From: Bacteroidales bacterium
Lineage (GTDB): Bacteria; Bacteroidota; Bacteroidia; Bacteroidales; WCHB1-69
NCBI GenBank assembly: GCA_024686335.1
Contig: JAILCI010000040.1
Location: 73,680 to 137,679, forward strand
Direction of reading: 5' to 3'
Length of the DNA: 64,000 nt
Shown here: positions 3,237 to 62,782 of the stretch, piece after piece
Layout: each line of letters starts with the position of its first letter
Numbering within the stretch: the first letter of the stretch is position 1
The notes under the pieces: model-generated
Databases searched by the model: none
Told to the model about the DNA's origin: nothing
What the model saw: only the letters and a program-made list of their open reading frames with translations
Translations under genes and position numbers: made by a program

Positions 3237-3522
3237 TATTTTAAATTTTAAACATAATTTTGTTTTTATTTTGCAAATATAATACAACATTTTACAAATG
3301 TCAATACTTTGAAGATAATTTTATAAGATTGATTACCAACAAATTGCAATAGCTATGGTCAACATGTAATTATTGGATAACATCTCGTTGTCCGTATTTT
3401 TGAATATTTTTAAATAAAATACCTTTCAACACCGTCAACTTGAGGTAGGAAACCAACCCCTCTCTATCCCCTCTCCCTCACCCATATCAAAATTATTATT
3501 TTGTTTTTTACCCACAATTTCC

Positions 3523-33530: not shown

Positions 33531-33595
33531 TTCACAATTTTTCATGCGGCAAAAATACAAAAATCTATCACGGGTCTGCTCGCCACCCTGCACCT

Positions 33596-33651
33596 GTAGG
33601 GTCGATGCGTGCATCGACCATCCTCGGAGCAATCTGCGTCCTCGCAGATTG
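33596..33651 (+). repeat. Dispersed GTAG REP abutting a CGGAG-tagged hairpin
   Basis: Exact copy of the RAYT REP at 33596-33619, then CGGAG-CAATCTGCG-TCCT-CGCAGATTG at 33625-33651. Confidence 0.85.
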
Positions 33652-33679
33652 TTATATTCAAAACACAGATTCGACCAAA

Positions 33680-33712
33680 TAAAAAGAGAGGATGCATAGC
33701 GACATCCTCTCT
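33680..33712 (-). terminator. Intrinsic terminator of the giant gene
   Basis: Minus strand GAGAGGATG-loop-CATCCTCTC-TTTTT, about 25 bp after the stop. Confidence 0.8.
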
Positions 33713-33736
33713 AATAATTTCATCCGTAAAGAAAGA

Positions 33737-36700
33737 CTACTCTTTCTCCTTGATACATCTGATGCTGTATCCGTTAGGATTGTTGGAGGAGACGTTCGTC
33801 ACGCGGAGACAGTTGACGGTGAGTTCGATCTCTACCGGCACCACGGTGCCACCAACGGTGGTCGTTGCCCAGTAGTAATCCATCAAGGTCATGTCTTCGT
33901 AACGATCCAAAGCGCCGTTGTACTTGCCACCAGGCAGGCCGGTGAAGCCCGTGGTGTTGGTACCAGCACCGTCAACCCACAAGGTGGTTGCACGCAATGC
34001 GTCAGGACCGTAAGCGTTCAGTTCCTCGTACTGCTCCTTAGTCGGCAGATACCAACCGTTAGGACAGATACCCGGCACGTGACCGTAACTGTTCGTCGTT
34101 CCACCATTGACAGCTGCTTCCCATGTGTACAAGTGACCGTAAGTAGCCAGGTTGGCTGCCTCGTCGTTGTAGTACAACGGTGAGTAGTACGTCATCACAT
34201 CCGGAATGTCAGCACCGCCAACATAGTGCTCGGACTTGAGGTTGGTCTTCGTCCAGCACTCGCAACCGATACGCACGCTCTCGTAAGTGATGTTGTCGGC
34301 ATCCGTTGCCGTAGGACATTCTGGGAAGTTGACTGTCACAGTCTGAGGACATGTGGCCATCACATTGCCGCAAGTGTCTGACAATGTCCAAGTGATGGTA
34401 TGATCACCCACTGCCAACGGATTCTGGCTTGCCAGGTCGTTGGCAACGACATAGCTGTTAGGCGTCATGCCTGTGCCTACCGTTGCTTCGCCTGTCAGCG
34501 TGTACTCGATGTCGCACTCGCCGAAGTTCAGCGTCACGGTCTCATTGGCAGGACAGGTGAAGTCCGTGAAGTTGGTCACCTCCAGAGTACCGGCGTGACG
34601 TACAATGGTGTACTGGTCGGTAACATCCGTGGTACCGTCCTTCATGACAATCACTGCACCGATGGTGTGCTCGGAAGTGCCCACGCAGGTCTGGCTGCCG
34701 GCATGTGCGATAGTGGCAACATCGCCAGTTGCTAGACTGTCAACAGCGGCAATCGTGTAACCATTGCTGGTCAGAGCAGTACCGTCGTAAACCTTGGTGG
34801 CATCAGCAGCAGTGATGTCCAAAGTGCGCAGGGTGATATCCAACTTGAGGTTGTAGGAAACCGAGTAGTTGGAGATACCCTTCGTCGTGCCGAACGGAGT
34901 CGTGATGTTGGCAACACCGGAAACCGGTGCCATGCTCAACATTGCGAAGCCGCTAGGTGTGAAGACGTAGGTGTAGGTGCCAACTCTGAAGTCGGATGTG
35001 GTAACCTCACCGGCATTCAGGGCGTCACCATCAACAAGACCGGTAACCACCACGTCAGCGCTTGTGTAGTCTACAACAAACGGTGTGCCGTCGTAAATCT
35101 TGGATGCATTGGAGATGGTGATGGTCAAGTTGGCAGGAGTGATGATCAGAGCGCCAGGCACCAAAGTGATATTGTAGTTGGATGTCACATCCTCAGTACC
35201 ATTCATAATCTTGTTAGTACCAGAGAATACGCCATCGTAAGTACCTACATTCGTGCCGGTAGCGCTATAGGTGGTAGTCCAAGTGTGACCAGCCACCAGG
35301 TTATCAGCAGTAACACCAGTTATTGTCTGAGCTGCACCAGTGTATACCACGCTGCTGGATTCACCCGTCAGAGTCAACGGACGAGCCGTCACTGCCAGGG
35401 TGCCTTCCACCTTAGTTACGTTAGTGTAATAGGTAGAGGTGGCGATGGTATAATCGAATGTATTGTCAGCAGTACCCACATTCGTAATGCTTGCAGGTGT
35501 CGTCACCGTGATGATGTCACCGTTCGGCAATTCGAACTTCGTGCTGTCGGTAGCCAGACGTGCCACAGCGACACCGTCGAAGGTTACAGAGTAGCTCGGG
35601 TAGGTATGAGCCTCACCGTCATAGGTCCAACTTTGAGAGTTGGAGGTGATGACCACAGGCAGACTGATACCAGAGACTACCAACTGACCGAATGTCACGG
35701 TGATGTCATAGTTGTTGGCATTGGTACCAGAATTGAGTGTGTAGGTGAAGCTGTTGTCGCTATGACCGATTTCGGTCTGGGTGCCGGTGAAGGTGTAAGT
35801 AGCGCCTTGACCAGATACCCAGCCAGTCTCAACTGCGAGCGGTTCAGTACCGTTCACGAGCGGAGTACCGTCATAGGTCTTAGACAGCGTTGCTGATGTC
35901 AGAGTCACAGGACGTCTTGTCACGCTCAAAGAGAAGACAGAATCCACAGGGTTGTAGTTCGGGCAGGTAGCCGTCACTTTAACCATTATGGTGTCAACGT
36001 CGGTGACAGACGGAACAACGGTAGAAGGAGTCCAGGTGGTGCCGCCGTCAGTGCTGTACTGGTAGGTTACGGTCGGCGTTGAAGTGCCGTAAGGAGCATC
36101 AGCGGTGCTGGTGCCACTCAAGGCAGTGCCGTCATAAACCTGAGTACGCTCCGTCGGAGGAGTGATAGTCAAAGCATCGCTTGGAGTCACAGCCTGATAA
36201 CCGTCGGTAACCGTGAAGGTCACGCCAGAGAAGTTAGTGTTCGTGTTGGTGAACTGAGTAGCAAGCAAGCCCATGTTTGTGGTGCCGACATCCGTTCTGG
36301 AAGCACTTGCGGTGCCGCTGAATGAGAAGTCGCTGGCCACATTATACAGCGTGCTGCTAGCAGTAGCAACATAACCGGTGGTGGTGTAAGCAGTACCGTT
36401 GTATACATCGGTACTGTTGTTACCAACGATGGTCACCGTCACGCCAGTGAGCGGATTAACGGTCAGAGTGCCTGCCGTTGTCGTGATGGTGTAGTCACCG
36501 GCTTGAGTATCGCTGTTCAATGTGTAGGTAAAGGCGTTGCTGGAGAAACCGGCATTGGTCTGAGTACCTGTCACACTGTAAGAAGCGCCCTCGCCCGTCA
36601 CGAAACCGTCGCCGCCGACAGTCACGGTATTGTTGGTCAATGCCGTGCCGTCATAGACCTTGCTGTCGGTTGCAGATGTCAAGGTTACGTTACGTTTCGT

Positions 36701-39700
36701 CACCTCAAGAATACCGTTTACAGGAGTTGCAAAGGTGTAGTTTGCAGTCACGTCGGTGGTACCGCGCATTACCTTGTAGGAAGTCACCACGTTGTTGGCA
36801 GTACCCACATGCGTGATGGTACCTTCCACAGTGGCGGTCAAGACATCACCTGTCAACAGGACACCCGTAGTGTAGGTGTAGCCAGCGTCAGTCAAGGCGC
36901 TTCCGTCATAGGTCTTATTGTCGGAATCAGCAGTAATAATGATCGGGGTTGTGATCGGGGTTACTGTCTGGTAACCGTCAACAACCGTGAAGGTCACTTC
37001 GGCGAAGTTGGTGTTCGTGTTGGTGAACATAGCGGCGGTCAGGCCCATATTCGTCGTACCGACATCCAGGCGAGAGGCTGAAGCCGTACCACTGAAGGTA
37101 AAGTCAGTATTGACGTTATACAGACTGTTGTCTGCCGTAGCAACATAACCAGTCGTCGTATAGGTTGTGCCGTTGTAAACATTTGAGTTTTGATTACCGG
37201 TGATGGTCACAACCACGCTGTTGACTGAATGTACGGTCAAGGTACCCTCTGTCTTGGTGATATTGTAATCACCTGCAGAGGTGTTGCTGTTCAGCGTATA
37301 GGTGAAGGTGTTGGCGGATGCTCCAGTTGCCAACTGGCTACCCGTCACATTGTAGGTTGCACCCTCGCCATCAGCGAAGCCGTCGCCGCCGACAGTCACA
37401 GTACTGTTGGTCAATGCTGTACCGTCAAACACTTTGCTGTCTGTTGCAGATGTCAAGGTTACGTTACGTTTCGTCACCTCAAGAGTACCGTTCACAGATG
37501 TTGCAAAGGTGTAGTTTGCGGTCACGTCTACAGCGCCGCGCATTACCTTGTAGGAGGTCACCACATTGTTGGCAGTGCCCACATGAGTGATGGTACCTTC
37601 CACAGTAGCGGTCAGCACATCACCAGTCAGGAGAACACCGTCAGTGAAGGTATAACCGGCATTGGTCAATGCACTTCCGTTATACTTTCTAGTGTCAGAG
37701 TTAGCCGTGATGGTAATCGAAGTCGTAATCGGAGTCACAGTCTGATAACCATCTGCTGTAACCGTGAAGGTAACACCGGAGAAGTTGCTGTTCGTGTTGG
37801 TGAACTGAGTAGCAAGCAAGCCCATGTTCGTGGTGCCGACATCCGTTCTGGAAGCACTTGCGGTGCCGCTGAATGAGAAGTCGCTAGCCACATTATACAG
37901 CGTGCTGTTAGCAGTAGCAACATAACCGGTGGTAGTGTAAGCAGTACCGTTGTATACATTGGTATTGTGGTTACCAACGATGGTGACCGTAACGCCAGTG
38001 AGCGGGCTGATGGTCAGCACGCCAGGTGTCAACGTGATGGTGTAGTTGTCCGTCACATCGACAGTGCCGTTCATAATGCTATTGGTACCAGAGAATGAAC
38101 CATTATAGTCACCGGCATTGGTACCTGCAGCCGCGTATGCGATGGTCCAGGTATGACCGCTCACAAGGTTGTCGGCAGTGATGCCCGTGATGGACTGCTC
38201 CGTACCGTTGTAGGTGCGCGTTGCAGTCTCACCGGTCAGGGTCACCGGACGCTTGCTGATGGCGATAGTGCCCTCATTGGCGGTAATGGCGGTGTAGAAG
38301 GTCTGGTTCTCGATAGAGTAAGCATAAGTGTTGGCAACACCGGCAGTGTAGTCGGTTACGCTGGCAGGCGTGCTGATGGTCAGCGTGTCGCCTGTAGGCA
38401 GCTTGAATCTGGTGCTGTCGCCCGTGATGTGGGCAACCTCGGCACCGGCATAGGTCACCGTGTAGCTCGGATAGGTGTGGGCCTCTCCGTCATACGTCCA
38501 GGTCTTGCTGTTGGAGTTGATGACCAGGGCGCTGGTGTTGGCGGTCACCTCAAGGGTACCAGGCGTTGTCGTGATGTTGTAGTTGTTGGCATCGGTGTTG
38601 GCGTTCAGCGTATAGGTGAAGGTATTGTCGGATTGACCAACCTCCGTCTGGCTGCCCGTCACACTGTAGGTAGCGCCCTCGCCGTCTGCGAAGCCGTCGC
38701 CGCCGACAGTCACGGTACTGTTGGTCAATGCCGTGCCGTCATAAGGCTTGGTGTCGCCTGCAGAGGTCAGGGTCACATTGCGTCTCGTCACGCTCAACGT
38801 GAAGACAGAATCCACAGAGTTGTAGTTCGGGCAGGTTGCCGTCACCTTAACCATGATGGTGTCCACATCGGTGATGGACGGAGCATCGGTAGTTGATGTC
38901 CAGGTGTTACCGCCATCCGTGCTGTACTGGTAGGTTACGGTCGGAGCGGTGGTGCCGTAAGCAGCCGCTGCCGAGCTGGTGCCTGCCAGTTCAGTGCCGT
39001 CGTATGTCTTCGTGCGCTCCGTCGGAGGAGTGATGGTCAGGGCATCGCTCGGCGTAATTGCCTGGTAGCCATCCGTCACATTGAAGGTCACTGTCGTGAA
39101 GTTGTCGTTCGTGTTGGCGAACTGACTTGCAGCAAGGCCCATGAACGTGGTATCCACATCCGTTCTAGTTGCTGTAGAGTCTCCGCTGAACGTGAAATCG
39201 TCGACGGTGTACAGCTGGTTGCTGATGGCAACATCGTAGCCATGTACGCTGTGTGCGGTACCGTCATAGGTCGTAGTGTTGTTATGACCGGTGATGGTGA
39301 CCACAACCACGTCAATAGGCGTGATCGTCTGGTAACCGTCCGTGACGTTGAAGGTCACCGTACCGAAGTTGCTGTTCGTGTTGGTGAACTGGTTCTCGGT
39401 TCCTGCGTCTGTACCCTTCAAATTCATATAGGTCGTACCCTCTACCATTCTGGCAGCTGTCGAGTCGCCACTGAAGGAGAAGTCGTTGATGGTGTACAGC
39501 GGAGTGCTGAATGTCGCATCATAGCCATGGACACTGTGCTCAGCACCGTCATAGGTCGTGGTGTTGCTATGACCGGTGATGGTAACGGTAACGTCGATCG
39601 GAGTAATCACCTGGTAACCGTCAGTAACGTTGAAGGTCACCGTACTGAAGTTCGTGTTCGTGTTGGTGAACTGGCCTGCAGCAAGACCCATATCGGTCTG

Positions 39701-54700: not shown

Positions 54701-57700
54701 GAGCGTGATAGGACGCGGGGTTACCGTCATGGTGAACTGGCAGGTGTTTTCGCTATATTGCGTGTGAGTAGCTTTCACCGTCACTTGGATAGTGCCGGCA
54801 TCGGTAATGGTCGGCCTAGTTGAACTGAAGTTTTCGCCATCTGTACTATATGATAAGGTATAACCTGTAATAGCATTGTTATCGGCATCCCTTACGGTAA
54901 TTTCATTCGTTGTGAACTCAAGTGCGCTGCCGTCATATACCTTGGTCTTGTCGCCCGGACAGTGGACGGTCATCACGTTCTGTGCCACCGTAAGGGTGCA
55001 GGTCTCGGTCTTGCTCAAGCAATCGCCGAGGTTACCCGTCTTGGAGATAGTTGCAGTCACAATAACTTGGCCTACATTATCGCCGTGAACCGTTACGGAG
55101 GCATCTGTAGAACCAGGTGTAGTTGTAAAGGATGCATTGGTATTGCTCAAGCTCCATGCAATAGTCTCGCCCGTCACAAGCGGACGAACGCTGAGGGTTC
55201 CGTTGGTGTTGTACTGGATAGTGCCGGGGCAGTTGAGTGCCACATCGGCGGGAGCGGTGTTCACGGTCACGTTTACCTGGGCGGAGGCGGTACAGCCATT
55301 CGCGTCCTGTGCGTTCACCGTGAAGGTGTTGGTGCTCTGCGGAGTGTATGAAAAGCTATTGTTAGCTGCAGCATACGTGTCATGACCTGAGATTCCCGGC
55401 CATTGGTATGTGACATCCCCTACTCCATTGGTAGCAGTAGCAGAGAAAGCAACACTTGTGCCTTCACAAACAACCGTAGAAGTAGGAGTAGCCTCCAAGG
55501 TCATCTTGGCAGGAACGGTAATGGTAACCGTCTCAGAAGAAGAAAGGCCACAAGCATTGGTAGCCGTGATAACCACATCATGTGAGGTTGCTGTCGTCCC
55601 TTGTGCTATAGAAGTACCGGCAACAGGACTTTGACTCAATGTATAGTTGGAGCAAGTCTCAGTAACTGACACCACGCCATCTGCCATATAATTGGGAACA
55701 ACATAGGTACAGTTATCGTTGGCAATCGCAGACAATGTAGAGATTGTTCCTATTACAGGAGCCGTTGCATCATTCACTGTCAGCGTCACTGCTTCAGCAG
55801 TAGCGGTACATCCATGATTATCCACGATGGAAACACCGACGCTGTAGCTTTGTCCGCACTGTGTAGGCAAGGTGAAGGTAGCGGTGTTATCTTGCGTAGC
55901 ATTGGGGGTAAGGTTTCCACTCCATGTGTATATGTAAGAGTTAGCTCCACTAGCCGTAGCATCAAGTGTTATATCACCAGTGTTAGGGCAATACGGATTC
56001 TGCAATTGAGTAGTGATGCTTACTGTCGGAGTTTCATGAACAGTAAGGGTATAGGTCTCAGCAGTATAGATACCGGTGGTATTACATGTCTCGTCTTTCG
56101 CCAGACGTTTAAAGATATAGGTACCGGCGGTATTGGTATAGGCTGATGTAGGAGTATAGTTGAGCTGGTCATTGGTGCCATCCGCTGCAACGAATGCACC
56201 GTTTTCACCGGTATTCACCTGCCACTGGTAGGTAATGGTACCGTTACCGCCAGCGGCTTGCACACTGTTGAGGATAGCAGATGCCGTAGCGCCTTTACAG
56301 ATCTCCTGACCGGCATTGTTAATGCTACCGGGTGTCATCTGCGGATATACGGTCAGCACCCAGCTGCCCGTACTCTGCACAAAGTCGGTGTTACAGAGGC
56401 CGTCATGTGCCTTGCGGGTGAAGGTGTGGGTACCGGCGGTGGTAGTATAGTTGGCAGCATCAGGTGTAAATGTAGCATCTGTTGCGTCCTCAATTTCCAC
56501 ATCGTTATGATACCATTGATAGGTAATGTTTTCGTCACCACCAGAAGCATCAGTAGTGCTACCTATTGCTGTAAGAGAGGTTGCACCGTAGCAGACAGAT
56601 TGACCCGTAGTAGCGATAGCGCCGGCGGTGAACTGCGGACGGACGGTAACCGTGCAAGTCTTCACAATAGGTTCGGTAGTACAATTACCAACAGTAGCGG
56701 TAACAGATACCGTATAAACATGCTCACCCGCCGTGAGGTTGCTCGGCGTAGTATAGTTTGCAGCAGTACCTACAGTATTGTCTTCAGCATCTTTCCAAAC
56801 GAAAGTCAAATCTCCATTGACATCAGAGGTGACTGTCTCAAACGTATGAGTTGTACCATAACAGATGGTCTCCGAAGCAATGTCTGCAACTGAGACTTGC
56901 GGGTCATTGACAGTGACAGTGACAGTTGCCGTATCCGTAGCTGTACAAGCATCGTCACCCGTGCCTACAGTAGCCGTGGCCACAACCGTATATGTACCAG
57001 CTTCTGTAACATCACTAAGGGTAGAGCCTGTGGATAGAGGTGTCCCCGTGGTAGCATCACCGCTATACCACTGATAGGTTACCTCACCCGTGAAACTCTG
57101 GGTGGTAACAGTGAGATCCGTTGAACTGCCAGCGCAAATGGTCTGGTTTGTCATATCATTCAACTCAACAGCAGGAGCATAGATGGTGATGGTTCCTGTG
57201 GCTGACTGCTGAGGACAACCATACTGACTGAAAGCCATAACGGTATAGTTATAGACACCAGACACCGTAGGCGTACCACTGATGATGCCATTACTCAAGC
57301 TAACGCCTGTGGGCAGACCATTAGCAATCATATTGTTGGAAGGAACATTGGTCTCAATATTAATATCTTCAATAGCATTTTTGAAACATACAATCTGGGT
57401 GGCCTTCTCGCCAAGATTTAATGTGACTTGAGGGTTGATCGTGATTTTAACAGAATCTCTACTTACACATCCCTTCGCATCTGTCACGGTCACATGATAG
57501 GTTGTGGTTCCCGTAGGAGTAACCATAACAATTGCAGAGGTAGAAGAGGACGGATCATCCCAAACATATTCATAACTTCCATTGCCACCATTGGCAGAGA
57601 CAAAGATAGTAGTAGTGTTACCTGCACAAATGGCAGCATCTGGTGTCACCTGAGTAGTGAGATTTAACGACGGTTCATTAACCGTAACCGTAGCCGTAGT

Positions 57701-60700
57701 TGTACAACCATTTGCGTCTTTAACATTTACTTGATATTGGTTAGCAGACAAACCACTAAAAGTACCATTAGGAGAATACGCACTTTCCTCTTGAGTACTC
57801 AACTTATATTGATAGTTCGGAGTACCATTAACACCTGTAATGGTAAAACTACCTGTATTATTACCCTTACAATCCACGTCTGTCTCATCAGAAATAGTAG
57901 CATACAACAAGGAAGGCTCTGCAACAGTCACCATCTGGGTAGCCGTACAGCCATTGGCATCCTTGACGATAATCATATGGTTTCCGCCATCCACGTCAGT
58001 AAAGTTCAATTCATTCTTATAGGCACCGGCATCCAAACGATATTGATAGTTCGGAGTACCGCCTGTCGTATTTCCATTTGCAGTAATTGTCGCATTATCG
58101 TCCCCATAACACAACAAATCCGTATGATTGGGAAGCGGTAATGTCAGAGCCTCGGGCACCGTAACATTAATGGTAGTGGAGGCTGTCTGGCCGCATGCAT
58201 CTGTTACTGTCACCGTCACTGGTGTAGTCTCGGTAATAAGAGTGTTAACGGCAGGAGATTGTGTCACCACAAGATCTGTCGTTGCTGTACAAGTATAAGG
58301 ATCGGCAACCGTCACATAGGTGGTTCCAGTAAGGTCAGGGATTTTGTAGCCGCAAGAACCGGTAGTAGTGGCTGCCACACCAGCATCGGCCAGCGTTGTT
58401 TTGGTAATAGTGGGCGCATCACTTTCGTGCTGCACCACGTATGTATAAGTCCAATCGCGGTAGTTGTCTTCACAACTATCTACCGAATAACGATAGGTAT
58501 AAGTAAACGTACCGTTACATTTGAGTTCATCTGCAGAAGGGGAGGAAATCAAAGTTCGCGTGGTGGGCATGTTACAACCAGCCGTCACATCTGATGGCAC
58601 TTCTGTAGGATCAGGAGTCTTCACATCAGTGATACAATTCACCACCTTAGGAGTAGTTTGTGCCGTAATGCTCCAGTCGTCAATCTCCACCGTGACATGC
58701 TTGCCTATTTCAGCCACACAACCGATGGCATCGGTGTAAGAAATTGTATAATCATATTCTGCCGCGCAAGTGCCAGACGGGATAGGCACTTCATACGTGG
58801 TAGTAGTGGTACCTGTAGCAACCGTATCTGTTTTCACCACCTCATTGCCTAACTTCCATTCCACGGTATTGCCAGAGGTGGAGTTTGAAATATTCACCAA
58901 GACTGTTCTGTCCGTGGTAGAAGCATTCGGACAAAGTATATCGTCTGTCTGGCTTAGTATTACGGGGTTAGCACCCTGACTGACCTCAACATTTACGGTG
59001 ATCGGATCACCTATACAGTAGAAGCCTTTGGTAGGTGTTACAGAATAGGTAACAGTGATAGTATGATCAGTAGAGTTTGTGATCGTACCATGTACATTAG
59101 GTTCTGAATAACCTGCCTCGCCGCCCGTAAAGGCATCATCTGAAGTGGGCTCACTCCAACTATAGCGCGTACCTGACGGTATTGAATCAACAGCCGTCAT
59201 CTGAACAGTGAAGGGATATCCGCTGCAGACATTTTGTTTCGTAATAGGACTAACAAAATTAAACGGATTAGAACGTGCATTGATAGTAGTTGACTCTGAC
59301 ACATGACATCCATTAGCATCTGTAACCGTTACATTATAACCTTGTGGGGTGAAATTAGAAAGTATGGTATAACTTGTCTGGCTGATGTCGGTAGACGATA
59401 TTGTTGATGTCGGGGCGGCATCATTATCGCCCCGCCAAGAAATAGTATATGGCTGAGTACCACCAGTATACACCACATCAATAGAACCATCCTGACTGTC
59501 GCAGTTCGGATCATGAGCTGTTAATGTAATAATCCTTAATTCATCCGGTTCCTTTACCGTAATCGTATCACTTTTTATACACCCTTCGCCATCTGAAGTA
59601 TGAAACGCATCCTTCACCGTTACCGTATAGGTACCAGCAAGCAGCCCATCAAAAACCGCAGAAGTAGTACTACTAGCTGTGACAGGGTCTTTTGGCGTAA
59701 GACCATCACTAATGAGATATACCGTATAGCTGCCATCTGAACCGACTGTACCACCAGTAATATTGCTTACTGTTATCTTACCAGTATTTTCACCATTACA
59801 TTTCACTGGGTCCTGTTTCAAATCAAAATCAATATTTTGTTCCCATTGGGCATAGAGGGTTGTTTGGTCATCTGCATTTTGGAATTGTGTGGTGCCCATT
59901 ATGGTATTACCATCATCATCTTTCCATCCACGGAAAGTGTAGTTTTCGCGTGAGACCTCGTCTGAAAAATCCCAACGAGGATTAGACCCATAGGTTGTAT
60001 TATATTTCAAATGAAATGTATCAGAAGCAGATAAACTTGCGCCATTACCATTGGGATCCAAACGGACATAATAGGTTTTGGGCTCCCATTTCGCATATAT
60101 ATTACAATCACCTGCTTGCCAAGTACCTGTCAAATCAACTTGAGTTCCAGTCAATGATTCATTCCAATACCATCCCTCTATTTCATACCCATCCTTAGTA
60201 ATACCATTGGACGAACTGAGATTGCAACTGGCCAAGTTAACATTCATCTGTTGATCATAAACTACTGTAAATTGATAATCATCACCAATTTGTGTAAGGC
60301 AATCTCCAATTAAAGAACCTCCATTGGTGTGCACTGTACACACATATTCATTGGCTTTCCATTTAGCATAAAGTTTAAAATTAGTGGTTTGCTTACAATT
60401 ACTAGAATCATTGACCGATTTAGTACATGCAGCGTCAAAAAACCAACCTACAAATGTATAACCATTACGTGATGGATTTGTGGAAGGAATGATACTTGAA
60501 TAAAGATTATAATAGGGTAGCGTTGTTGTGCTTGTGGAACCTCCCGTATAATTTTCATTAAATGTGACTGTCAGGGTAAGTGTCGTATAAGTAATCCACA
60601 CTGCACCATTGGCACCGGAACCGCCGGTATTAGAGCCTCCGCCTAGGCCCTCCCAACAATTTCTCACCGCGCCTCCTCCACCTCCGCCAGGTGCATTTCC

Positions 60701-61414
60701 GCCTCTACCATCATGAGTATCAGTACCGTCATAACCTTCACCTCCAGTTCCTCCACCGCCACCGGCAGCTCCTCCTGTACCTGAATATGCATCACCTCCC
60801 CAACCTGCTCCCCAGGCGGATTCCGTTGCAGCTCCTCCACCTGGAGAACCTGATTCACCATTACCAGACACCACAGTTCCTCCTAATCCACCTTCTGCAC
60901 TGTTTGTTCCGTTACAACTATTACCCTTCTTTCCTCCACCAGCTTCAACCTCAATTGAATAGGATGAACTAGAAAAAACAATTCTAGAATTACCACCATC
61001 ATTGGATCCACCACCACCCGAACCTACTTCATATGTGATAGTTCTACTATTTGACAATGTAAATGGAGTTTCACTTTTAACATAAGCACCGCCGCCACCG
61101 CCAGCACCAGCGCCATGTTTGTTGGCACCATTATAAGCATTACCACCGCCACCGCCGCCGCCCCAGGCTTCAATTTTGACAACCTGGTATGCGCCTACGG
61201 GAGCAGTCCAAGTACCCGAACCTGAAGTATACTTCACAGGATCCTGTTGCACTGGTGTTTGTCCCCACGCGTCTCCCATGCCGACCATAAGGGCGAGGCA
61301 GAGAGTGAAGAGAATTTGAGAGAATGAAAGGATAGGCTTTTTACGTTGAGCGGGGTTGTAGTCCGCAGTCGTCATCGTAGCCTTCGTTCCGTCAAAATTG
61401 TAATTGTTGTTCAT
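33737..61414 (-). CDS. Giant (~9,225 aa) repetitive surface protein/adhesin with C-terminal FISUMP-like domain
   Basis: One open frame of 27,678 bp. Signal peptide ...LCLALMVGMGDAWG-Q; Gly-rich domain (IEAWGGGGGGG); InlB-B-like repeats (GYTFVGWF...LYAKW); many SprB-like repeats (C.G...G.I...GGT.PY.Y...YTVTVTDANGC); HYR-like (KDETAPTI..CP); He_PIG-like (GLP.GV....ISGTPT); MBG-like (KVYDGTAL); C-terminus CWTKTNL...YGHLYTW...ICPNGWYLPT...GFTGLPGG...YYW...GYSIRCIKE. Confidence 0.88.
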   Translation of the reverse strand: MNNNYNFDGTKATMTTADYNPAQRKKPILSFSQILFTLCLALMVGMGDAWGQTPVQQDPVKYTSGSGTWTAPVGAYQVVKIEAWGGGGGGGNAYNGANKHGAGAGGGGGAYVKSETPFTLSNSRTITYEVGSGGGGSNDGGNSRIVFSSSSYSIEVEAGGGKKGNSCNGTNSAEGGLGGTVVSGNGESGSPGGGAATESAWGAGWGGDAYSGTGGAAGGGGGTGGEGYDGTDTHDGRGGNAPGGGGGGAVRNCWEGLGGGSNTGGSGANGAVWITYTTLTLTVTFNENYTGGSTSTTTLPYYNLYSSIIPSTNPSRNGYTFVGWFFDAACTKSVNDSSNCKQTTNFKLYAKWKANEYVCTVHTNGGSLIGDCLTQIGDDYQFTVVYDQQMNVNLASCNLSSSNGITKDGYEIEGWYWNESLTGTQVDLTGTWQAGDCNIYAKWEPKTYYVRLDPNGNGASLSASDTFHLKYNTTYGSNPRWDFSDEVSRENYTFRGWKDDDGNTIMGTTQFQNADDQTTLYAQWEQNIDFDLKQDPVKCNGENTGKITVSNITGGTVGSDGSYTVYLISDGLTPKDPVTASSTTSAVFDGLLAGTYTVTVKDAFHTSDGEGCIKSDTITVKEPDELRIITLTAHDPNCDSQDGSIDVVYTGGTQPYTISWRGDNDAAPTSTISSTDISQTSYTILSNFTPQGYNVTVTDANGCHVSESTTINARSNPFNFVSPITKQNVCSGYPFTVQMTAVDSIPSGTRYSWSEPTSDDAFTGGEAGYSEPNVHGTITNSTDHTITVTYSVTPTKGFYCIGDPITVNVEVSQGANPVILSQTDDILCPNASTTDRTVLVNISNSTSGNTVEWKLGNEVVKTDTVATGTTTTTYEVPIPSGTCAAEYDYTISYTDAIGCVAEIGKHVTVEIDDWSITAQTTPKVVNCITDVKTPDPTEVPSDVTAGCNMPTTRTLISSPSADELKCNGTFTYTYRYSVDSCEDNYRDWTYTYVVQHESDAPTITKTTLADAGVAATTTGSCGYKIPDLTGTTYVTVADPYTCTATTDLVVTQSPAVNTLITETTPVTVTVTDACGQTASTTINVTVPEALTLPLPNHTDLLCYGDDNATITANGNTTGGTPNYQYRLDAGAYKNELNFTDVDGGNHMIIVKDANGCTATQMVTVAEPSLLYATISDETDVDCKGNNTGSFTITGVNGTPNYQYKLSTQEESAYSPNGTFSGLSANQYQVNVKDANGCTTTATVTVNEPSLNLTTQVTPDAAICAGNTTTIFVSANGGNGSYEYVWDDPSSSTSAIVMVTPTGTTTYHVTVTDAKGCVSRDSVKITINPQVTLNLGEKATQIVCFKNAIEDINIETNVPSNNMIANGLPTGVSLSNGIISGTPTVSGVYNYTVMAFSQYGCPQQSATGTITIYAPAVELNDMTNQTICAGSSTDLTVTTQSFTGEVTYQWYSGDATTGTPLSTGSTLSDVTEAGTYTVVATATVGTGDDACTATDTATVTVTVNDPQVSVADIASETICYGTTHTFETVTSDVNGDLTFVWKDAEDNTVGTAANYTTPSNLTAGEHVYTVSVTATVGNCTTEPIVKTCTVTVRPQFTAGAIATTGQSVCYGATSLTAIGSTTDASGGDENITYQWYHNDVEIEDATDATFTPDAANYTTTAGTHTFTRKAHDGLCNTDFVQSTGSWVLTVYPQMTPGSINNAGQEICKGATASAILNSVQAAGGNGTITYQWQVNTGENGAFVAADGTNDQLNYTPTSAYTNTAGTYIFKRLAKDETCNTTGIYTAETYTLTVHETPTVSITTQLQNPYCPNTGDITLDATASGANSYIYTWSGNLTPNATQDNTATFTLPTQCGQSYSVGVSIVDNHGCTATAEAVTLTVNDATAPVIGTISTLSAIANDNCTYVVPNYMADGVVSVTETCSNYTLSQSPVAGTSIAQGTTATSHDVVITATNACGLSSSETVTITVPAKMTLEATPTSTVVCEGTSVAFSATATNGVGDVTYQWPGISGHDTYAAANNSFSYTPQSTNTFTVNAQDANGCTASAQVNVTVNTAPADVALNCPGTIQYNTNGTLSVRPLVTGETIAWSLSNTNASFTTTPGSTDASVTVHGDNVGQVIVTATISKTGNLGDCLSKTETCTLTVAQNVMTVHCPGDKTKVYDGSALEFTTNEITVRDADNNAITGYTLSYSTDGENFSSTRPTITDAGTIQVTVKATHTQYSENTCQFTMTVTPRPITLTSTECAAWTGNQMVSNLNGATVTEGELVTNHTISAGTVTTNQATGGVYTYSSSSSSNTATPADLAIMEGTNNRTANYAVTLNTTQTILQAQITHDIVNNTCPLASGQNYTFTASVAGGVTLTLPTYAWSYTIDGGETQSAEGPTLNIASDGICHTYAVSATITDGSCTSNTATTSITSKDETAPTIQSCPATVVALPNNGEGVTPSCTYLIPDVVSQVVAQDNCTATNLLSITQSPAANTVVTTDNRTITVTVKDLCNNSSTKTVTVTLPETLALSTYSSTAVTCHDGNNGTVTIAAATGGTSPYTYNINNVTATNLTFSGLSAGNYTVVATDANGCTANLAVTVNNIDALTATAADKIICYGGNKNISVTAQGGSGNYTYVWSSEAGSQATVNVAPTVTTEYTVTVSDLADATCSTTATCTVNVRPQFTAGAIATTGQSICFGATDGFTEIGNATSAFGGDSNITYQWYHNDEAINNTNSATYTPNSDYTSVAGTHTFTRKAKDGTCNTEFEQSTGSWVLTVYPELNAGAISGSETICEGATPSAIGAGTLPSGGQGEFQYLWQVSTDNGNNYSDAAGTNSESTYTPATSYAQNISGTATYTFIRKVKNATCGDWMPSTGTYTLTVNDTIVPVISGEDDICISTSLDNTTLELVETATDPSGYSYQWTLGNGENGTVSGSATTRNFAASWSTTGEKHVYLTVTNGTTGCVSRTSKTITVNDIPVAVISATDEVCPSATSQTITGTVTSTATPNYKYEWNGGGLFTNQTQDITTTSSTVTVTDVPDVCNTNYTIALKVTDGNGCSANATPFTITVKDATAPTFATGDPIPATAAANCTYTMPSLNIPAVLSRVTNDNCSYGDIAFVSQSVPVGTSYNQSSVEQTIPVTVVVEDACHNTVSQTVNVTIPANTLAATISGNTPICKGASSTISVTSVEGVTGTPTYAWAHETNSTNTTTVSPTTSTVYTVTVTGDNGCYVVKTQNIVVNELPTVNVANTTVCSGQGTATLSAVGNGTGTLQYVWNDDATNPTTGPTLTVPAPSTETSYTVEVTDGNGCQNSTTGTIYIYTPVQVTVNNAEICADGTATLTANMAEQSSPLYSWAPSTYLSASTGASVTFSGAEAGSYTVTVTGTDDHNCTSTATSTITVNPLPVVAINAVDPLCPSAGSTTVTAEVTTTTATPYTYNWSASTGLSLSAQTDNAATSQVTASFGTGCNNTYTVNLNIVDAEGCTATAEPISVVVKDEAAPVIGTIADVTATAAGSCKYEMPNLSATVLAATQDSECGYTGNNVTFVSQSVPAGTSYTQTTSAQTIVVNVVVKDACGNTANKDVNVIIPANNFTAEITDPYAICYGADATTITVTPSQASGTVTYNWSSSTSEAFDITDNVISVTPTANTTYNVTATDGNGCTVNLSTTVSVNALPVVTVSNDVVCNGQGTAELVASVTAAEPYTCVWTVSGVEVQDNDNKDDTLTIVNPTIAQDYTVTVTDNNGCVNSGMGHLSLDTIPNIQITNEITTVCANSTLQLTASNGATYEWAAPEGVTLSATTGASVNFSSATAGQYTVTVTGTNSNGCSATDDVAITVNALPVPEITSPNLSICQGQQTTTLAATGGFPQYKWNYNNAEDQTITVGAAGTYTVTVTDANGCKGSVSATVTANPMPTVTLAADDATICPEGQQNAALTATANGGTLENGNTYTYVWTLGETTITPTEPTSYTTSVTGTYKVKVSDSEGCYAESNTVTISNHTLPTVTVNSANICASGTATLMANGAQTYTWDPATYLTVNNANATFAAAAAGEYTVTVTGIDGNGCQNTATSTIKVNPDVVLTLADGSGAKDQNLCANTALTPIVFNIQNATISQSAGVLPAGVTFDPSTKTISGTPTQTGTFEYTIKAASNQTNPECDPVTITGTIKVNPTVQLTVTPLTQEICAGGNIQDITLTSVNGTLPATLSLAEGLTYTRTDDFNATITGSIATANEDGYTYNIVAVSNQTDPTCDPAPKQITITVHPNPVAAIATIPTVCPASGTQAITANITTPTTANYTYAWTGGVVLTPANTTTANTSNEVSAAVPVVCDNSYAINLTVTDNYGCQATATKTMTVKDETTPTISTVAAVAANNNVVTATSIGNCKYTVPNLTTSDYVTVADDCTTQTLAVTQSVAAGTQFTATETSKDVVVTVTDGCGKKATVTITVKKPDAVAVTITAGAEGVCLGDNTTLTASATSGNGTEGMTFTWSPNTGLSATNTAAVTATPTTTTEYTVTARDGNGCSATATQTVNVYTLPTVTIADVADLCPNAGSTTLTATADLEDADNPTFNYSWSCESLSWTASASEQGTTNTQTLSSIPNTCTATTYTVSVEVTETAHNCQASTTNTVTVKDEENPTITPSVTTIQASTAGGTGCTYTMPDLTTAITYTVEDNCTLATTLQNTLTQSVTAGTTISETTPVTVTITDGCNHTATTTIVVTVPDAFTIVENTLGHQNVTCPGGHDGQAMIDVDHIVGGTAPFTYTVDAGQYGSEYTFSGLTAGTHHLTAKDANGCTATKDVVITQPDAFDVTISTTPATCANNNGAVSVVVTGGTPSSVTGYAFQYAGELTYSAGDYTNSASSVSPHSISTLEVGSYTVTITDNNDCSIEEDFEITLDNNLEITSIPTPKPLCSGGSFAVQPVTSTPGTTTYTWNAPTQSIENGVSNTAASGSNETTINGSNLENVTANQEPVTLTYNVTAHNGVCTYDAALVMTVNATVRPQVTITPADFTVCPNVGTQELSAVIAHVYADKDTLTWTFNNGTPIVEYHNNPSSTYTETQVVDIPSDDCNTTYPYIVSYTDGVCTNSASGNVTVTVEDGIVITPPTSVDTTVNCFADVKTPHMLRHKMPTSIVDACGQVIEYNHYIDFNVSTFNVPCNGDQVFTYTYSDCNGNTKDYTYTYHIQAPALTLPDPGAATVVCESDAVTPATPQTLIDACDRAVPAVLVDNTTENPNPVSTVTNGSGTVTYHYTYTTCDGAVSDWYYVYTVNPAAYTPEENVEVTRNCKSELIAAADIPVPNFSICGTHIDFTLRTGYPQDNFTLDCGTRTYLYDYTVNGTAYTWTYTETVKPVDFTMPDNQGSTVACYSAITAPTLPVVKDACNNILTPTGLVISPENFTGCTGNVTYTYTYKDCQNHEHQWVYTYHVNDSVAPTFTTLPANNTVMADHTSDANGCYYTYPNLTDGEVVATANCSGVNSAISYSQDTTAGTAIKQTDAVQNLPVVVTATNGCGISSTTTIYVTVPAKLTVAEVASEHHNVTCFNGSDGSVKVEVTTGTGTSPYQYSINTTATQNLAGVFTDLSVPANPTSGTNAQGGIWYGDYTVTASDAHGCQATTTVTIASPVELAWENCPTDMVFCCDAGQTYATVIPGVNFTVPELNTTANFTDIEVALNASENHYPIGETTVAYYTEDECKEYEGVECSFTITVLPNPAVDFEDADLANQTKCFGQPIDDIVLTFSNATLTATGLPEGVTLDAETGVISGTPTATPAPAGTSYPYIITATSNQSAGDVTGCGTQTLTGTITVKPAPTVTLVSTQESCTGNDATITATYQNGMSANNNIFIALDNATEHVQIPGIGTTKEYTGLAAGEHVVTVWAASFDPVTYSLVEGCSASATIEVTLDSPYPAQNISDIEVPTICSGATFTATPDAPDFQNYTTTYAWDAPAVTDITGGAAATAQANVNGTLSNTTSASQDAVYTVTPTTGNVCVGSTFTVTVPVYGQLTLAETSPDATYCKGEENVAALAVTANAGSGSYTYQWLKNDVAIEGADADTYTPSTADAGTFVYKVTVHDAAGCGDSTRTIATIMVNDTLVPNIVSNDDVCVNSSLIKNELGITDENGNATDYTYTWTLGDGGSITSTPVNSNAITAVWTSAGEKTVSLVATNSATGCQSHAKKTITVYNVPTPALNNENVCISTSSTNNTLTLTTDADQNDYAWTVGTDGTYTGSGNSVEAQWSSIGNKTVTVTYTDAHGCRATTTKVVQVKAVPVPVLSNSAVCVYGSTTNNTITLNTNSGMSSYVWTLAESDGTISAGQGTSSLTAYWTQAGAKTVTVAMTNSDNCTASISATITVNDISTPTITGDHAICVSNSSTTDVLSLSTESNMTSYIWSVNGGNIISGSGTNAITVEWTSDGAKTVTVNYTNAAGCTNPTATEHAVTVYPNPIPTIEGADNICISTSATNTELTLKTQPGMTDYVWNTGDATVVSGGTSTDSTVTLTWTTTGSKTVTVNYKNANGCTNPTPASKTITVNALTVPTLTGGDVCIDTSEANTTFNLSTQSGMSDYVWTVGQDGTFTGETDAIEAQWSSVGEKTVTVTFKDGNNCTTTSTTTVNVFPKPTVEVTDYNSQCFNTADGFITLNLAAGTPNYTVTWNANGSTGSLGNGVYTISNLADGSYSISVTDSKGCKVSTTQTVEQIAQTLTVTAVDHTWDYDGTAHTDAGYNIAFGTESYNVAAADAANGHALINGDVVTAVVTGSITEAGTQTNTVSSVKVMRDETDVTCYYNVSKVNGELKINPIDVTVTLHGNNSTLPYDGTAHTVEGYTVDAISSTLYTANDFGLATGVVASATRTNVVEGEDTDGKTDMGLTSASFVNNNPNFATVTFTVTDGYQIITPIDVTVAIVGNTATNAYDGTAHTVEGYTATTESTLYKVTGETVDFTFSGTASATRTNVVEGEDTDGKTDMGLASGQFANANPNFGTVTFEVTDGYQIITPIDVTVSIVGNTATNAYDGTAHTVEGYTATTESTLYKVTGETVDFTFSGTASATRTNVVEGTDTDGKTDMGLAAGQFANANPNFATVTFNVTDGYQVITPITAAVTIVGNTATNAYDGESHTVEGYTATTESTLYKVTGETVDFTFSGTASATRTNVVEGTDTDGKTDMGLAASQFANANPNFSTVTFNVTDGYQVITPITAEVTIVGNTATNAYDGTAHTVEGYTATTENTLYKVTGETVDFTFSGTASATRTNVVEGTDTDGQTDMGLAAGQFTNTNTNFSTVTFNVTDGYQVITPIDVTVTITGHSNTTTYDGAEHSVHGYDATFSTPLYTINDFSFSGDSTAARMVEGTTYMNLKGTDAGTENQFTNTNSNFGTVTFNVTDGYQTITPIDVVVVTITGHNNTTTYDGTAHSVHGYDVAISNQLYTVDDFTFSGDSTATRTDVDTTFMGLAASQFANTNDNFTTVTFNVTDGYQAITPSDALTITPPTERTKTYDGTELAGTSSAAAAYGTTAPTVTYQYSTDGGNTWTSTTDAPSITDVDTIMVKVTATCPNYNSVDSVFTLSVTRRNVTLTSAGDTKPYDGTALTNSTVTVGGDGFADGEGATYSVTGSQTEVGQSDNTFTYTLNANTDANNYNITTTPGTLEVTANTSALVINSNSKTWTYDGEAHTYPSYTVTYAGAEVAHITGDSTRFKLPTGDTLTISTPASVTDYTAGVANTYAYSIENQTFYTAITANEGTIAISKRPVTLTGETATRTYNGTEQSITGITADNLVSGHTWTIAYAAAGTNAGDYNGSFSGTNSIMNGTVDVTDNYTITLTPGVLTISPLTGVTVTIVGNHNTNVYNGTAYTTTGYVATANSTLYNVASDFSFSGTASASRTDVGTTNMGLLATQFTNTNSNFSGVTFTVTADGYQTVTPITTSITITANSDTRKYNGSALTNAGYTFTDGVLLTGDVLTATVEGTITHVGTANNVVTSYKVMRGAVDVTANYTFATSVNGTLEVTKRNVTLTSATDSKVFDGTALTNSTVTVGGDGFADGEGATYNVTGSQLATGASANTFTYTLNSNTSAGDYNITKTEGTLTVHSVNSVVVTITGNQNSNVYNGTTYTTTGYVATADNSLYNVNTDFTFSGTASASRLDVGTTNMGLTAAMFTNTNTNFAEVTFTVVDGYQTVTPITTPIIITADSDNKTYDGSALTDAGYTYTTGVLLTGDVLTATVEGTITHVGTANNVVTSYKVMRGTTDVTANYTFATPVNGILEVTKRNVTLTSATDSKVYDGTALTNNTVTVGGDGFVTGEGASYSVTGTQTNAGFSSNAFTYTLNSDTQAGDYTITTTAGTLTVNPLTGVTVTIVGNNSTDVYNGTAYTTTGYVATASSTLYNVASDFSFSGTASASRTDVGTTNMGLLATQFTNTNTNFSGVTFTVTDGYQAVTPSDALTITPPTERTQVYDGTALSGTSTADAPYGTSTPTVTYQYSTDGGTTWTPSTVVPSVTDVDTIMVKVTATCPNYNPVDSVFSLSVTRRPVTLTSATLSKTYDGTPLVNGTEPLAVETGWVSGQGATYTFTGTQTEIGHSDNSFTYTLNSGTNANNYDITVTFGQLVVSGISLPVVITSNSQSWTYDGEAHTYPSYSVTFDGVAVARLATDSTKFELPNGDIITVTTPASITNVGTADNTFDYTIATSTYYTNVTKVEGTLAVTARPLTLTGESSSVVYTGAAQTITGVTADNLVAGHTWTTTYSATGTNVGTYDGVFSGTNKIMNGTEDVTSNYNITLVPGALIITPANLTITISNASKIYDGTPFVVDYTSADVVVTGLVDGDALNAGEVTTSDFRVGTYTYVFTPSGFAMLSMAPVSGVANITTPFGTTKGISNYSVSYNLKLDITLRTLDITAADATKVYDGTALTSNGYTIAAVDSLATGDVATIAHAGSQTCVGTSEHTIGAVIVMKDGTTDVTDQYTIVRHAGTLEVTNFTDFTCPANETVTLNFGECDIEYTLTGEATVGTGMTPNSYVVANDLASQNPLAVGDHTITWTLSDTCGNVMATCPQTVTVNFPECPTATDADNITYESVRIGCECWTKTNLKSEHYVGGADIPDVMTYYSPLYYNDEAANLATYGHLYTWEAAVNGGTTNSYGHVPGICPNGWYLPTKEQYEELNAYGPDALRATTLWVDGAGTNTTGFTGLPGGKYNGALDRYEDMTLMDYYWATTTVGGTVVPVEIELTVNCLRVTNVSSNNPNGYSIRCIKEKE
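39591..41085 (-). repeat. Five tandem 297-bp (99-aa) coding repeats inside the giant gene
   Basis: GAAGGT anchor at 39632, 39929, 40226, 40523 and 40820. Unit peptide NTATNAYDGTAHTVEGYTATTESTLYKVTGETVDFTFSGTASATRTNVVEG..TDGKTDMGL. Four copies are near-identical and the fifth is diverged. Confidence 0.95.
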
Positions 61415-61501
61415 ATTGATAATTTTTATTTTTTCCAAATCCATTGGCACGCTGCCTATATAAAAATATAATATGTATACGCACGCGCGCAAAAAACGTT
61501 G

Positions 61502-61509
61502 CAAAAGTA
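61502..61509 (-). promoter_or_regulatory. -7 promoter box (TACTTTTG) for the giant gene
   Basis: TAnnTTTG about 90 bp upstream of ATG 61414. This supports that start over the longer ORF-track start at 61522. Confidence 0.6.
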
Positions 61510-61619
61510 CAATTTTAAACAATACGATGTTAACATTTCAGCAGAAAAATTTGCAAATATAACGGACTGATTGACAAAGGGTTGGGAAAGTGAGGGATTT
61601 TTGGACCAAAAAGGACGGA

Positions 61620-61910
61620 CTCGCTGCGCTCGTAGGTTTGCGCCCGGAGTTCCCGCAGATTTAGGATTTTTTTGTTCGCTGCGCTCACTGTTTTGTGCCC
61701 GCAGATTACGCAGATCTCGCAGATGAACGCAGATTTTTGTTCTCGCTGCGCGAGGAGATTACGCAGAGTTTTTTGTTCGCTGCGCTCACGGTTTGCTCCC
61801 GCAGATTACGCAGATTACGCAGATGAACGCAGAGTTTTGTTCTCGCTGCGCGAGGAGATTACGCAGAGTTTTTTTGTTCGCTGCGCTCACGGGTTTGTGC
61901 CCGCAGATGG
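61620..61910 (+). repeat. 101-bp tandem repeat (~2.4 copies) built of CGCAGA and TCGCTGCGC motifs
   Basis: GTTCGCTGCGCTCAC at 61674, 61775 and 61876, with internal CGCAGATTACGCAGAT..CGCAGATGAACGCAGA. Partial copy at 61620. Confidence 0.9.
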
Positions 61911-61927
61911 ACACAACTCGCTTCACA

Positions 61928-62254: not shown

Positions 62255-62256
62255 AA

Positions 62257-62709: not shown

Positions 62710-62782
62710 GAGTAGTTGATAGTTGATAGTTGATAGTGGTCGGTAATCAGTCTGGGGAGCTTCGGTGGTCAGGGAGACCGTG

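Follow-up and report, generated by a model that had tools for sequence, protein, structure and literature searches.

How a very large protein can leave a diderm cell and act outside it without any known sorting signal is the question raised by a single gene in a 64,000-nucleotide stretch (the window) of contig JAILCI010000040.1 from a Bacteroidales bacterium. The gene encodes a protein of 9,225 residues (the giant) that ends in a FISUMP (Fib_succ_major) domain and lacks the C-terminal sorting domain (CTD) of T9SS (type IX secretion system) cargo. The giant is filed as a Bacteroidota giant repeat adhesin in which the T9SS tail is replaced by a cassette of predicted lectin fold. Overall, it is proposed, with slightly less than even confidence, to be an acidic, Thr-rich fiber of ~953 kDa whose two ends each carry a binding-type domain and which would be exported with the aid of T9SS and held by lectin-type contacts. 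New here are the tally of domains that stand in the CTD position, the difference in lipoprotein and signal peptidase I (SPI) leaders between genomes with and without the T9SS protein SprA, and the phage-fiber-like fold predicted for the head.

The FISUMP Domain and Its Predicted Fold

PF09603 matches the end of the giant over its full length (profile 1-187/187, 86.9 bits with a cut-off of 33.9, E 2.6e-24), stopping three residues before the stop codon, and TIGR02145 matches with 80.5 bits (cut-off 41.65, E 2.4e-22). The GxCPxGW motif and the closing RC (C86, P87, G89, W90, R188, and C189) are invariant in 15/15 aligned paralog domains. Modeled with AlphaFold2 from the 15 paralog domains of the genome, the last 194 residues reach a predicted local distance difference test (pLDDT) value of 86.9. 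In an exhaustive VIA-align search, almost all of the 50 best rows are C-type-lectin-like or formylglycine-generating enzyme (FGE)-sulfatase-fold structures by entry title. The top folds are TvpA (Z 9.0, root-mean-square deviation (rmsd) 3.7, 159 aligned) and CarF (Z 8.7), followed by the Yersinia adhesin InvE (Z 8.2, rmsd 3.2, 112 aligned), PvdO (Z 8.0), PorK (Z 7.1), the phage tropism protein Mtd (Z 7.0), the C-terminal domain of Bdellovibrio Bd2740 (Z 7.0), the C-terminal domain of Lcl (Z 6.9, rmsd 2.8, 99 aligned), and invasin (Z 6.5), and then by many animal lectin domains. Foldseek returned no match at E ≤0.001 for this model in the PDB, the weak lectin rows having E values of 0.05 or higher. 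A search with the last 261 residues against the sequences of solved structures gave nothing meaningful, the best row (E 0.01) being a viral VP1 that aligns with the HYR portion.

On this model, FISUMP is predicted to have a C-type-lectin/FGE fold. Because this is not the Ig-like sandwich of CTDs, the domain is most likely a binding module, and by analogy its ligand is probably a glycan. The DUF1566/DUF823/Fib_succ_major group is described as CLec2, a C-type-lectin class of ligand-binding domains diversified by diversity-generating retroelements (DGRs) (PMC5758913). Lcl's C-terminal region binds glycosaminoglycans at the end of its stalk (PMC11162425), and TIGR02145 proteins of Fibrobacter have been proposed as cohesin analogs or cellulose-binding proteins (PMC4704652). 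The statement in the initial annotation that FISUMP function is unknown is too strong in view of the modeled fold and of the published DGR-target class.

DGR diversification of the giant's own FISUMP was considered and rejected. The source genome, a 2.74-Mb draft of 64 contigs that is 99.85% complete, contains no RVT_1 match, and since it has no reverse transcriptase, the domain is not diversified there. The 3′ end of the gene has no second copy that could be a template repeat, except an 88%-identical paralog.

Occupants of the C-Terminal Position

The giant was scanned against Pfam as 19 overlapping 600-residue pieces, and NCBIfam was also searched. The type A CTD (PF18962/TIGR04183) is absent from all 19 pieces, and the 73 genome matches all lie elsewhere; the same holds for type B (TIGR04131), with 19 genome matches. 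Type C (NF033708) is absent from the giant too, its 24 sub-threshold genome matches falling in other frames, many of which also have a type A match. The earlier claim that the giant has neither a type A or B CTD nor a lipobox is thus borne out by Pfam, NCBIfam, and genome-wide profile searches and, for the lipobox, by reading of the leader, and it extends to type C. Reading of the leader and the Pfam and NCBIfam searches gave no recognizable surface anchor, whether CTD, lipobox, LPXTG, OmpA, or SLH domain.

The giant's last ~470 residues form an MBG-HYR-FISUMP cassette that matches the C-terminus of a 3,142-residue paralog frame on contig C5 at 81% identity. The DNA of the two genes is 88% identical over 33738-34846 (1,109 nt), and the rest of the proteins is <37% identical. 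The cassette also ends many metagenomic proteins (45-56% identity, 100% query cover), and PF18676 and PF18657 are present in homologs of the giant's cassette and stalk. A recurrent Bacteroidales design of 926-2,240 residues combines an SPI leader, Gly_rich_2, Flg_new/SprB/PKD_5/HYR_4C, MBG, and FISUMP. Public data hold seven further FISUMP-bearing giants (5,083-7,139 residues), all with SPI-type leaders, and the giant of the window is the longest in the search. Among FISUMP-ended database hits of at least 824 residues, a crude script filter finds signal-like N-termini in 34/57; reading these by eye leaves two false positives and 32 SPI-type leaders, five with a Cys in the hydrophobic core and 0 with a true lipobox. 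Three genomes of the same genus encode many FISUMP-ended proteins of 1,100-2,000 residues.

The head domain Gly_rich_2 occurs in 41/301 genomes of the order. C-ends were computed for 33 long Gly_rich_2 frames, of which six were dropped as too short or misplaced, and the other 27 were scanned with Pfam. Eleven end in Por_Secre_tail (six over cut-off), two in FISUMP, and one in dockerin; five more are CTD-like by eye only, and eight are unclear. Because none of these same-head C-ends (0/27) has a CTD after FISUMP or both at the end, FISUMP occupies the CTD position. The exclusivity of terminal FISUMP and CTDs that the initial annotation had raised holds at these C-ends but fails within single polypeptides. 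A 472-residue protein (G000:C58:16675-18090, L075:76-1491, -) of the source genome and the unrelated database protein P0120 carry Por_Secre_tail-like domains near the N-terminus (residues 88-160, 30.7 bits, and 68-141, 45.5 bits, respectively), followed by FISUMP. Judged by these profile matches, the T9SS "tail" fold is used internally in both proteins, which breaks strict mutual exclusion within one polypeptide.

Leader Type and the Presence of SprA

The leader of the giant, assigned by eye from the translation and not by a predictor, combines an extended n-region and a basic RKK with a hydrophobic core of 21 residues (PILSFSQILFTLCLALMVGMG) and the cleavage site AWG/Q. No lipobox was seen on reading by eye; the leader is not of that type because its only Cys sits within the h-region. 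The Gln at +1 agrees with the Q-rule for SPI substrates of Bacteroidetes (PMC5837995).

SprA is found in 289/301 genomes of the order. Its co-occurrence with Gly_rich_2 (39/39) is uninformative because SprA is nearly universal. Seven of the 12 SprA-negative genomes have FISUMP, with all over-cut-off matches in frames of ≤634 residues. These genomes give 17 such matches; 16 were parsed (G152:C8 was left out), and 16/16 have lipoprotein leaders. One of the 16 comes from an 82%-complete genome (G271) whose family is otherwise SprA-positive, and without it the count is 15/15 from three families. Among 16 SprA-positive genomes from 16 other families, nine have FISUMP, and their 14 complete FISUMP-ended open reading frames (ORFs) divide into seven SPI-type and seven lipoprotein leaders. 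Fisher's test on SPI-type leaders (7/14 vs 0/16) gives p = 0.0017 with relatedness ignored. The source genome itself encodes ten SPI-type, two lipoprotein, and three truncated FISUMP proteins (a 219-residue fragment frame was left out). In the control Bacteroides thetaiotaomicron, PF09603 matches, and SprA and Por_Secre_tail do not. A phylum-wide scan (151/401 genomes with a match) returns mostly ~250-residue proteins of one family and is uninformative on export.

These counts are read to mean that lipidated FISUMP proteins use the lipoprotein route in any genome, while unlipidated ones exist only where T9SS is available. The restriction of non-lipidated FISUMP-ended proteins to SprA-positive genomes is what T9SS dependence predicts, and dependence of the giant's outer-membrane passage on T9SS is held to be somewhat more probable than its independence.

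A stronger proposal is that FISUMP or the cassette is a fourth class of C-terminal module, recognized by T9SS or by a dedicated shuttle and giving a non-covalent hold, such that the C-end would be cell-proximal and the Gly-rich head distal. The cassette is a conserved C-terminal part on variable bodies, it stands in the CTD position of same-head relatives (two FISUMP against 11 Por_Secre_tail among 27), the relatives of the stalk are C-terminally anchored, and a CTD class beyond A and B is already known, namely type C, defined by ChiA (PMC10202324). A fourth T9SS-dependent class with a lectin fold, recognized for passage of the outer membrane and then tethering via a cell-surface glycan without cleavage or a lipopolysaccharide link, would explain both the replacement of the CTD on same-head relatives and the presence of SPI-type FISUMP only in SprA-positive genomes. 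However, the predicted fold is lectin-like and not the CTD sandwich, and a single protein can contain four or more FISUMP copies, in tandem or internally. A 2,687-residue protein on contig C26 has four matches and a split fifth at its C-end, together with collagen repeats. FISUMP is not by nature a C-terminal secretion signal, as it also occurs as internal tandem copies and, in genomes that lack SprA, on lipoproteins. In addition, no shared accessory gene (barrel or shuttle) lies beside the five multi-domain FISUMP loci inspected in the source genome (C5, C20, C62, C26, and C60) or the giant. A fourth class in its general form is thus unlikely, as is the cassette itself being the signal or tether, and the glycan-tethered form is more doubtful still. 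The export or anchoring role that the initial annotation had suggested for FISUMP keeps the CTD position and the SprA contrast in its favor, with the lipoproteins, the internal copies, and the non-CTD fold against it; the "distinct surface-display route" derived from it stands as a hypothesis.

Two observations on leaders are added. The giants of the FISUMP family (the window giant; P0137, P0139, and P0140; and the C5 paralog) tend to have an unusually long n-region of 25-35 residues before the hydrophobic core. In this they recall very large autotransporters and two-partner-secretion proteins, whose signal peptides are extended as well. FISUMP-ended proteins of different families (L086, L092, L102, L107, and G000:C26) share the mature N-terminus Q-x-P-x-K-[FIM]-[SN]-Y-Q-A-[VA]-[IVL]-R-[DN] after the cleavage site, which looks like an undescribed conserved N-terminal module.

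Exporters in the Source Genome

The initial annotation was right that the genome uses T9SS. SprA (2,437 bits), PorV (476 bits), and three PorP-family genes (contigs C35, C54, and C15) are present, CTD matches over the cut-off number 66 for type A and 17 for type B, and the M14 peptidase near the giant does carry Por_Secre_tail. Most other giants of the genome (2,000-4,500 residues) end in a type A CTD. T9SS is proposed as the exit of the giant because it is the only large-cargo exporter found in the source genome. No PorP/SprF-family gene was found among the giant's neighbors. The model of a PorV-FISUMP complex reached a score of 0.21, the mark being 0.32, which speaks neither for nor against binding. 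A type II or other secretin route was rejected, as the 99.85%-complete genome has no PF00263 match. PF03865, the profile for ShlB-type transporters of two-partner secretion, has no match either, but it is also silent in all 14 control genomes.

These results bear on the alternative that the giant is a T9SS-independent adhesin, released by vesicles, lysis, or another route or held at its N-terminus, with FISUMP as an outward head as in Lcl, invasin, and InvE. In invasin, InvE, Mtd, and Bd2740, the lectin-like C-terminus is a distal binding head. In Lcl, the globular head that binds ligand at the tip of the stalk is the lectin-like C-terminal region (PMC11162425), and the modeled FISUMP fold matches InvE, invasin, Mtd, and the C-terminal domain of Bd2740. 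Missing are the secretin and, with the caveat of the equally silent controls, a ShlB-type transporter; moreover, the mature N-terminus opens with the Gly-rich domain and shows no amphipathic helix or barrel. The absence of SPI-type FISUMP proteins from SprA-negative genomes would also be left unexplained, and this alternative is considered improbable.

The fibre might instead be tagged in trans, exported while bound to a small CTD-bearing partner that FISUMP or another domain contacts. On contig C26, a 161-residue ORF whose N-terminus is signal-like and which has a type A Por_Secre_tail match of 29.5 bits (L073:12140-12622, -) lies directly upstream, on the same strand, of the gene for the 2,687-residue collagen/CFSR-repeat/4xFISUMP protein (L073:4036-12096, -). 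From its sequence, this ORF is a possible secretion tag supplied in trans. However, such a pairing is seen at only 1/5 multi-domain FISUMP loci inspected in the source genome, and no such small gene lies beside the giant or the C5 paralog, making this route very unlikely for the giant.

Proposed Mechanism and Points Against It

In the preferred account of a T9SS-aided fiber with a binding-type domain at each end, the leader would direct Sec export and then be cut by SPI, after which the fiber would cross the outer membrane with T9SS help. The export signal, which may be located in the cassette, would belong to no known CTD type (A, B, or C). Once outside, the fiber would be retained, or act, through lectin-type contacts and not by covalent attachment to lipopolysaccharide. 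Having binding domains at both ends, it could link the cell with plant fiber or with other cells. By analogy, both polarities have precedents, namely the lectin-like distal head of Lcl and the C-end at the cell of CTD-bearing and LPXTG relatives.

Several points weigh against this account. Structurally analyzed T9SS CTDs share an Ig-like sandwich, an architecture that has been called essential (PMC11285876), and the predicted FISUMP fold is unlike it although T9SS cargo is defined by such a CTD. VIA-align Z values of 7-9 fall in the range that the tool calls common, and the case for the fold rests on the coherence of the list. The near-universality of SprA in the order means that most presence/absence contrasts carry little information, the SprA-negative set covers only three families (four with G271), and the leader classes were assigned by eye and simple patterns, not by a predictor. 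The C-end position argues equally for an anchor as for a distal head, and the CTD-bearing relatives too are tethered by their C-ends. Finally, none of the 10 runs listed for the giant's gene is an RNA run.

Integrity of the Reading Frame

The window has zero N, the contig that carries the giant is 141 kb long, and 33737..61522 (-) is listed as a single uninterrupted open frame of 9,261 codons from TTG. Other possible start ATGs lie at 61444 and 61375. The internal DNA repeats of the gene are ≤90% identical and the sole other copy of any part of it, on contig C5, is 88% identical; a mis-join is therefore unlikely. Short-read unitigs cover 30/30 bins of 33200-53199, many with 0 differences, although none spans the stretch; of the four runs that match, three are from one study, perhaps of the source sample, and so are not independent. 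At 39870-41203, the summed unitig depth is 5-9x that of the flanks in three runs (X1: 76-98 vs ~10). Hence, the number of stalk repeats, and with it the length of the protein, may differ from the assembly; the assembly may contain too few of the 89-residue repeats, or other genes or organisms may share their words. The three same-genus genomes have no orthologue and no DNA match of >38 nt, and their best protein match is 43% identical over the last 280 residues, in frames of ≤3,036 residues.

That the 27.7-kb frame is chimeric, collapsed in short-read assembly, or an unexpressed relic could be argued from the 64-contig draft, the lack of a spanning unitig, the local depth, and the missing orthologues, but 9,261 stop-free codons lie beyond chance, the repeats and the C5 copy are too divergent for a ready mis-join, zero-difference unitigs tile the bins in three runs, and seven other FISUMP-bearing giants are on record, which together leave this explanation with very little probability.

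Domain Layout of the Giant

The elements named in the initial annotation for a frame of ~9,225 residues (signal peptide, Gly-rich tip, InlB-B-like repeats, Ig modules, Cys-poor stalk, and FISUMP end) were all found. From N- to C-terminus, the order is Gly_rich_2, Flg_new repeats, Ig-like modules, a Pfam-poor stalk, an HYR-like domain, and Fib_succ_major, the last seen with both Pfam and NCBIfam (Table 1). The mature protein is computed to have 9,174 residues, ~953 kDa, an isoelectric point of 4.1, and 19% Thr.

Table 1. Positions of the giant gene, its protein regions, and flanking signals in the window.
Feature	Position	Strand	Details
Putative promoter element TATATTTG	61554..61561	-	fits TAnnTTTG
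Coding sequence of the giant	33737..61414	-	9,225 aa from ATG 61414; stop codon 33737-33739
Sec leader, 51 aa	61262..61414	-	extended n-region, h-region PILSFSQILFTLCLALMVGMG, SPI-type site AWG/Q
Gly-rich head, Gly_rich_2 (PF21722)	60587..61225	-	E 7.7e-11
Listeria-Bacteroides (Flg_new/InlB-B-like) repeats	59846..60571	-	PF09479 E 3.1e-22; TIGR02543 E 2.9e-18
Cys-bearing Ig-like modules, ~6,000 aa	41573..59725	-	SprB, HYR_4C, HYR, PKD_4/5/6, K319L-PKD, He_PIG, Ig_7, Big_9
Tandem repeats, 267-nt (89-aa) offset	39030..41089	-	74-84% identical
Cys-poor, Thr-rich MBG/YDG-like stalk, ~2,150 aa	34553..40975	-	sub-threshold MBG_2 and YDG matches
C-terminal cassette (last MBG repeats, HYR-like, FISUMP; ~470 aa)	33740..35149	-	conserved in paralog and metagenomic proteins
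HYR-like Ig domain directly before FISUMP	34331..34561	-	HYR E 0.0057, sub-threshold
FISUMP/Fib_succ_major	33749..34276	-	ends ...GYSIRCIKEKE
Terminator-like hairpin with T-run	33685..33712	-	25 nt past stop; 1 found vs shuffle mean 0.5

A model of the Gly_rich_2 head (pLDDT 75) matches the Pam3 cyanophage fiber 7ypx (Z 16.2, rmsd 2.6, 180 aligned, 27% identity), as well as the Bxb1 tail tip (Z 11.2) and the glycine-rich domain of ALK (Z 6.2). In its modeled fold, the N-terminal head of the giant thus resembles a phage fiber. No phage genes were found near the giant among the neighboring genes or by domain search. Other genomes of the order hold Gly_rich_2 frames of 3,100-7,200 residues (e.g., G203:C1 with 7,192 and G133:C13 with 4,492); since the G203:C1 frame matches Gly_rich_2 twice, this domain can also lie away from the N-terminus.

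The head is followed by three Flg_new stretches, with one more in the following piece (three to four repeats). SprB repeats (PF13573) exceed the cut-off in 7/19 pieces, and HYR_4C occurs three times (E 2.6e-54). The stalk is almost without Pfam match, MBG_2 reaching 18.9 bits and YDG 23.5 bits (seven stretches), both below the cut-off of 25. Cysteines number 12-20 per 500 residues up to about residue 6,600, 0-3 in residues 7,001-9,000, and nine in the last 261 residues. The combination of a repetitive stalk and a candidate adhesive domain is that of fibrillar adhesins. Gram-positive relatives of stalk and head terminate in LPXTG or membrane anchors or in SLH or OmpA domains.

Flanking Genes and Repeats

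The giant is neighbored by housekeeping genes (GNAT, LpxD, LpxC, DUF6913, and DapA) and by the M14 peptidase (27670-29358; Por_Secre_tail E 2.6e-11). TAnnTTTG, which the putative promoter element fits, is the Bacteroidetes -7 promoter motif. The upstream intergenic region (61640-62300) contains two families of tandem repeats, a GC-rich unit of ~120 nt in 3-4 copies and a ~60-nt unit, and adjoins an IS200-like Y1 transposase ORF (62257-62838, -; PF01797 E 1.9e-20). Together, these look like REP-type (repetitive extragenic palindromic) elements with a RAYT-like transposase. The window has further transposases in a weak Y1_Tnp ORF (18357-18983) and an IS1595-type ORF (2391-3290). Divergent from the giant is a large repeat protein that starts in the window (63359-64000, +) and continues to the contig end (G000:C44:137038-141160). 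Its frame of at least 1,374 residues runs off the contig and contains Cys/Tyr-rich repeats of the type CESYEWHGSTYTVSGEYTY; the 205 residues inside the window have no Pfam match.

Significance and Comparison with Known Systems

Giant repeat proteins are among the largest cell-surface investments of gut Bacteroidales. The FISUMP-ended design is common, with dozens of database proteins of 0.9-7 thousand residues and several per genome in the genus. If such proteins use T9SS without a known CTD, then the current rule for predicting T9SS cargo, which asks for a Sec leader and a CTD of type A, B, or C, overlooks an entire class of adhesins. The resulting prediction is falsifiable, in that FISUMP proteins should be lipidated in genomes that lack SprA and often unlipidated in those that have it. 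The covered parts of the FISUMP/Fib_succ_major literature, supplements excluded, give no account of giant CTD-less FISUMP-ended proteins.

The giant is like the FISUMP proteins (TIGR02145, PF09603) of Fibrobacter and Bacteroidota in having a full-length C-terminal domain with conserved Cys and CPxGW and an extracytoplasmic placement. It differs from known members in being non-lipidated, in its 9,225 residues, and in carrying the domain on a stalk cassette. Published FISUMP proteins often, but not obligatorily, have a lipoprotein signal (PMC5758913), and one F. succinogenes member is ~70 kDa (PMC4619616).

With Flavobacterium johnsoniae SprB and type A CTD repeat proteins, the giant shares SprB repeats, HYR/PKD/Ig_7 modules, a Sec leader, and a T9SS host, and the source genome has paralogs of 2,000-4,500 residues that end in type A CTDs. 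SprB itself has a type B CTD with SprF, whereas the giant has neither a CTD of type A, B, or C nor an adjacent PorP/SprF gene.

Legionella pneumophila Lcl (DUF1566/Lcl_C, PDB 8q4e) is similar in being a Sec-exported stalk with a C-terminal C-type-lectin-like domain, as far as the FISUMP model indicates. It is unlike the giant in its ~400 residues, its trimerization via collagen repeats, and its type II secretion, the source genome having no secretin. Lcl is held on the surface without a covalent anchor, and its N-terminal helix has been proposed as an extracellular membrane anchor (PMC11162425). Invasin, intimin, and InvE share with the giant a long Ig-like array and, according to the model, a C-terminal C-type-lectin-like domain. 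In these proteins, an N-terminal beta-barrel exports and anchors; no inverse-autotransporter barrel domain was detected with Pfam in the 19 pieces of the giant.

The Gram-positive Flg_new/MBG fibrillar adhesins have a homologous stalk and homologous Listeria-Bacteroides repeats (30-40% identity over ~40% of the cassette query). Their C-termini carry LPXTG or transmembrane anchors, where the giant, in its diderm host, has FISUMP. The head, as modeled, is like the glycine-rich domains of the Pam3 fiber, the Bxb1 tail tip, and ALK, here placed on a cellular, Sec-exported protein.

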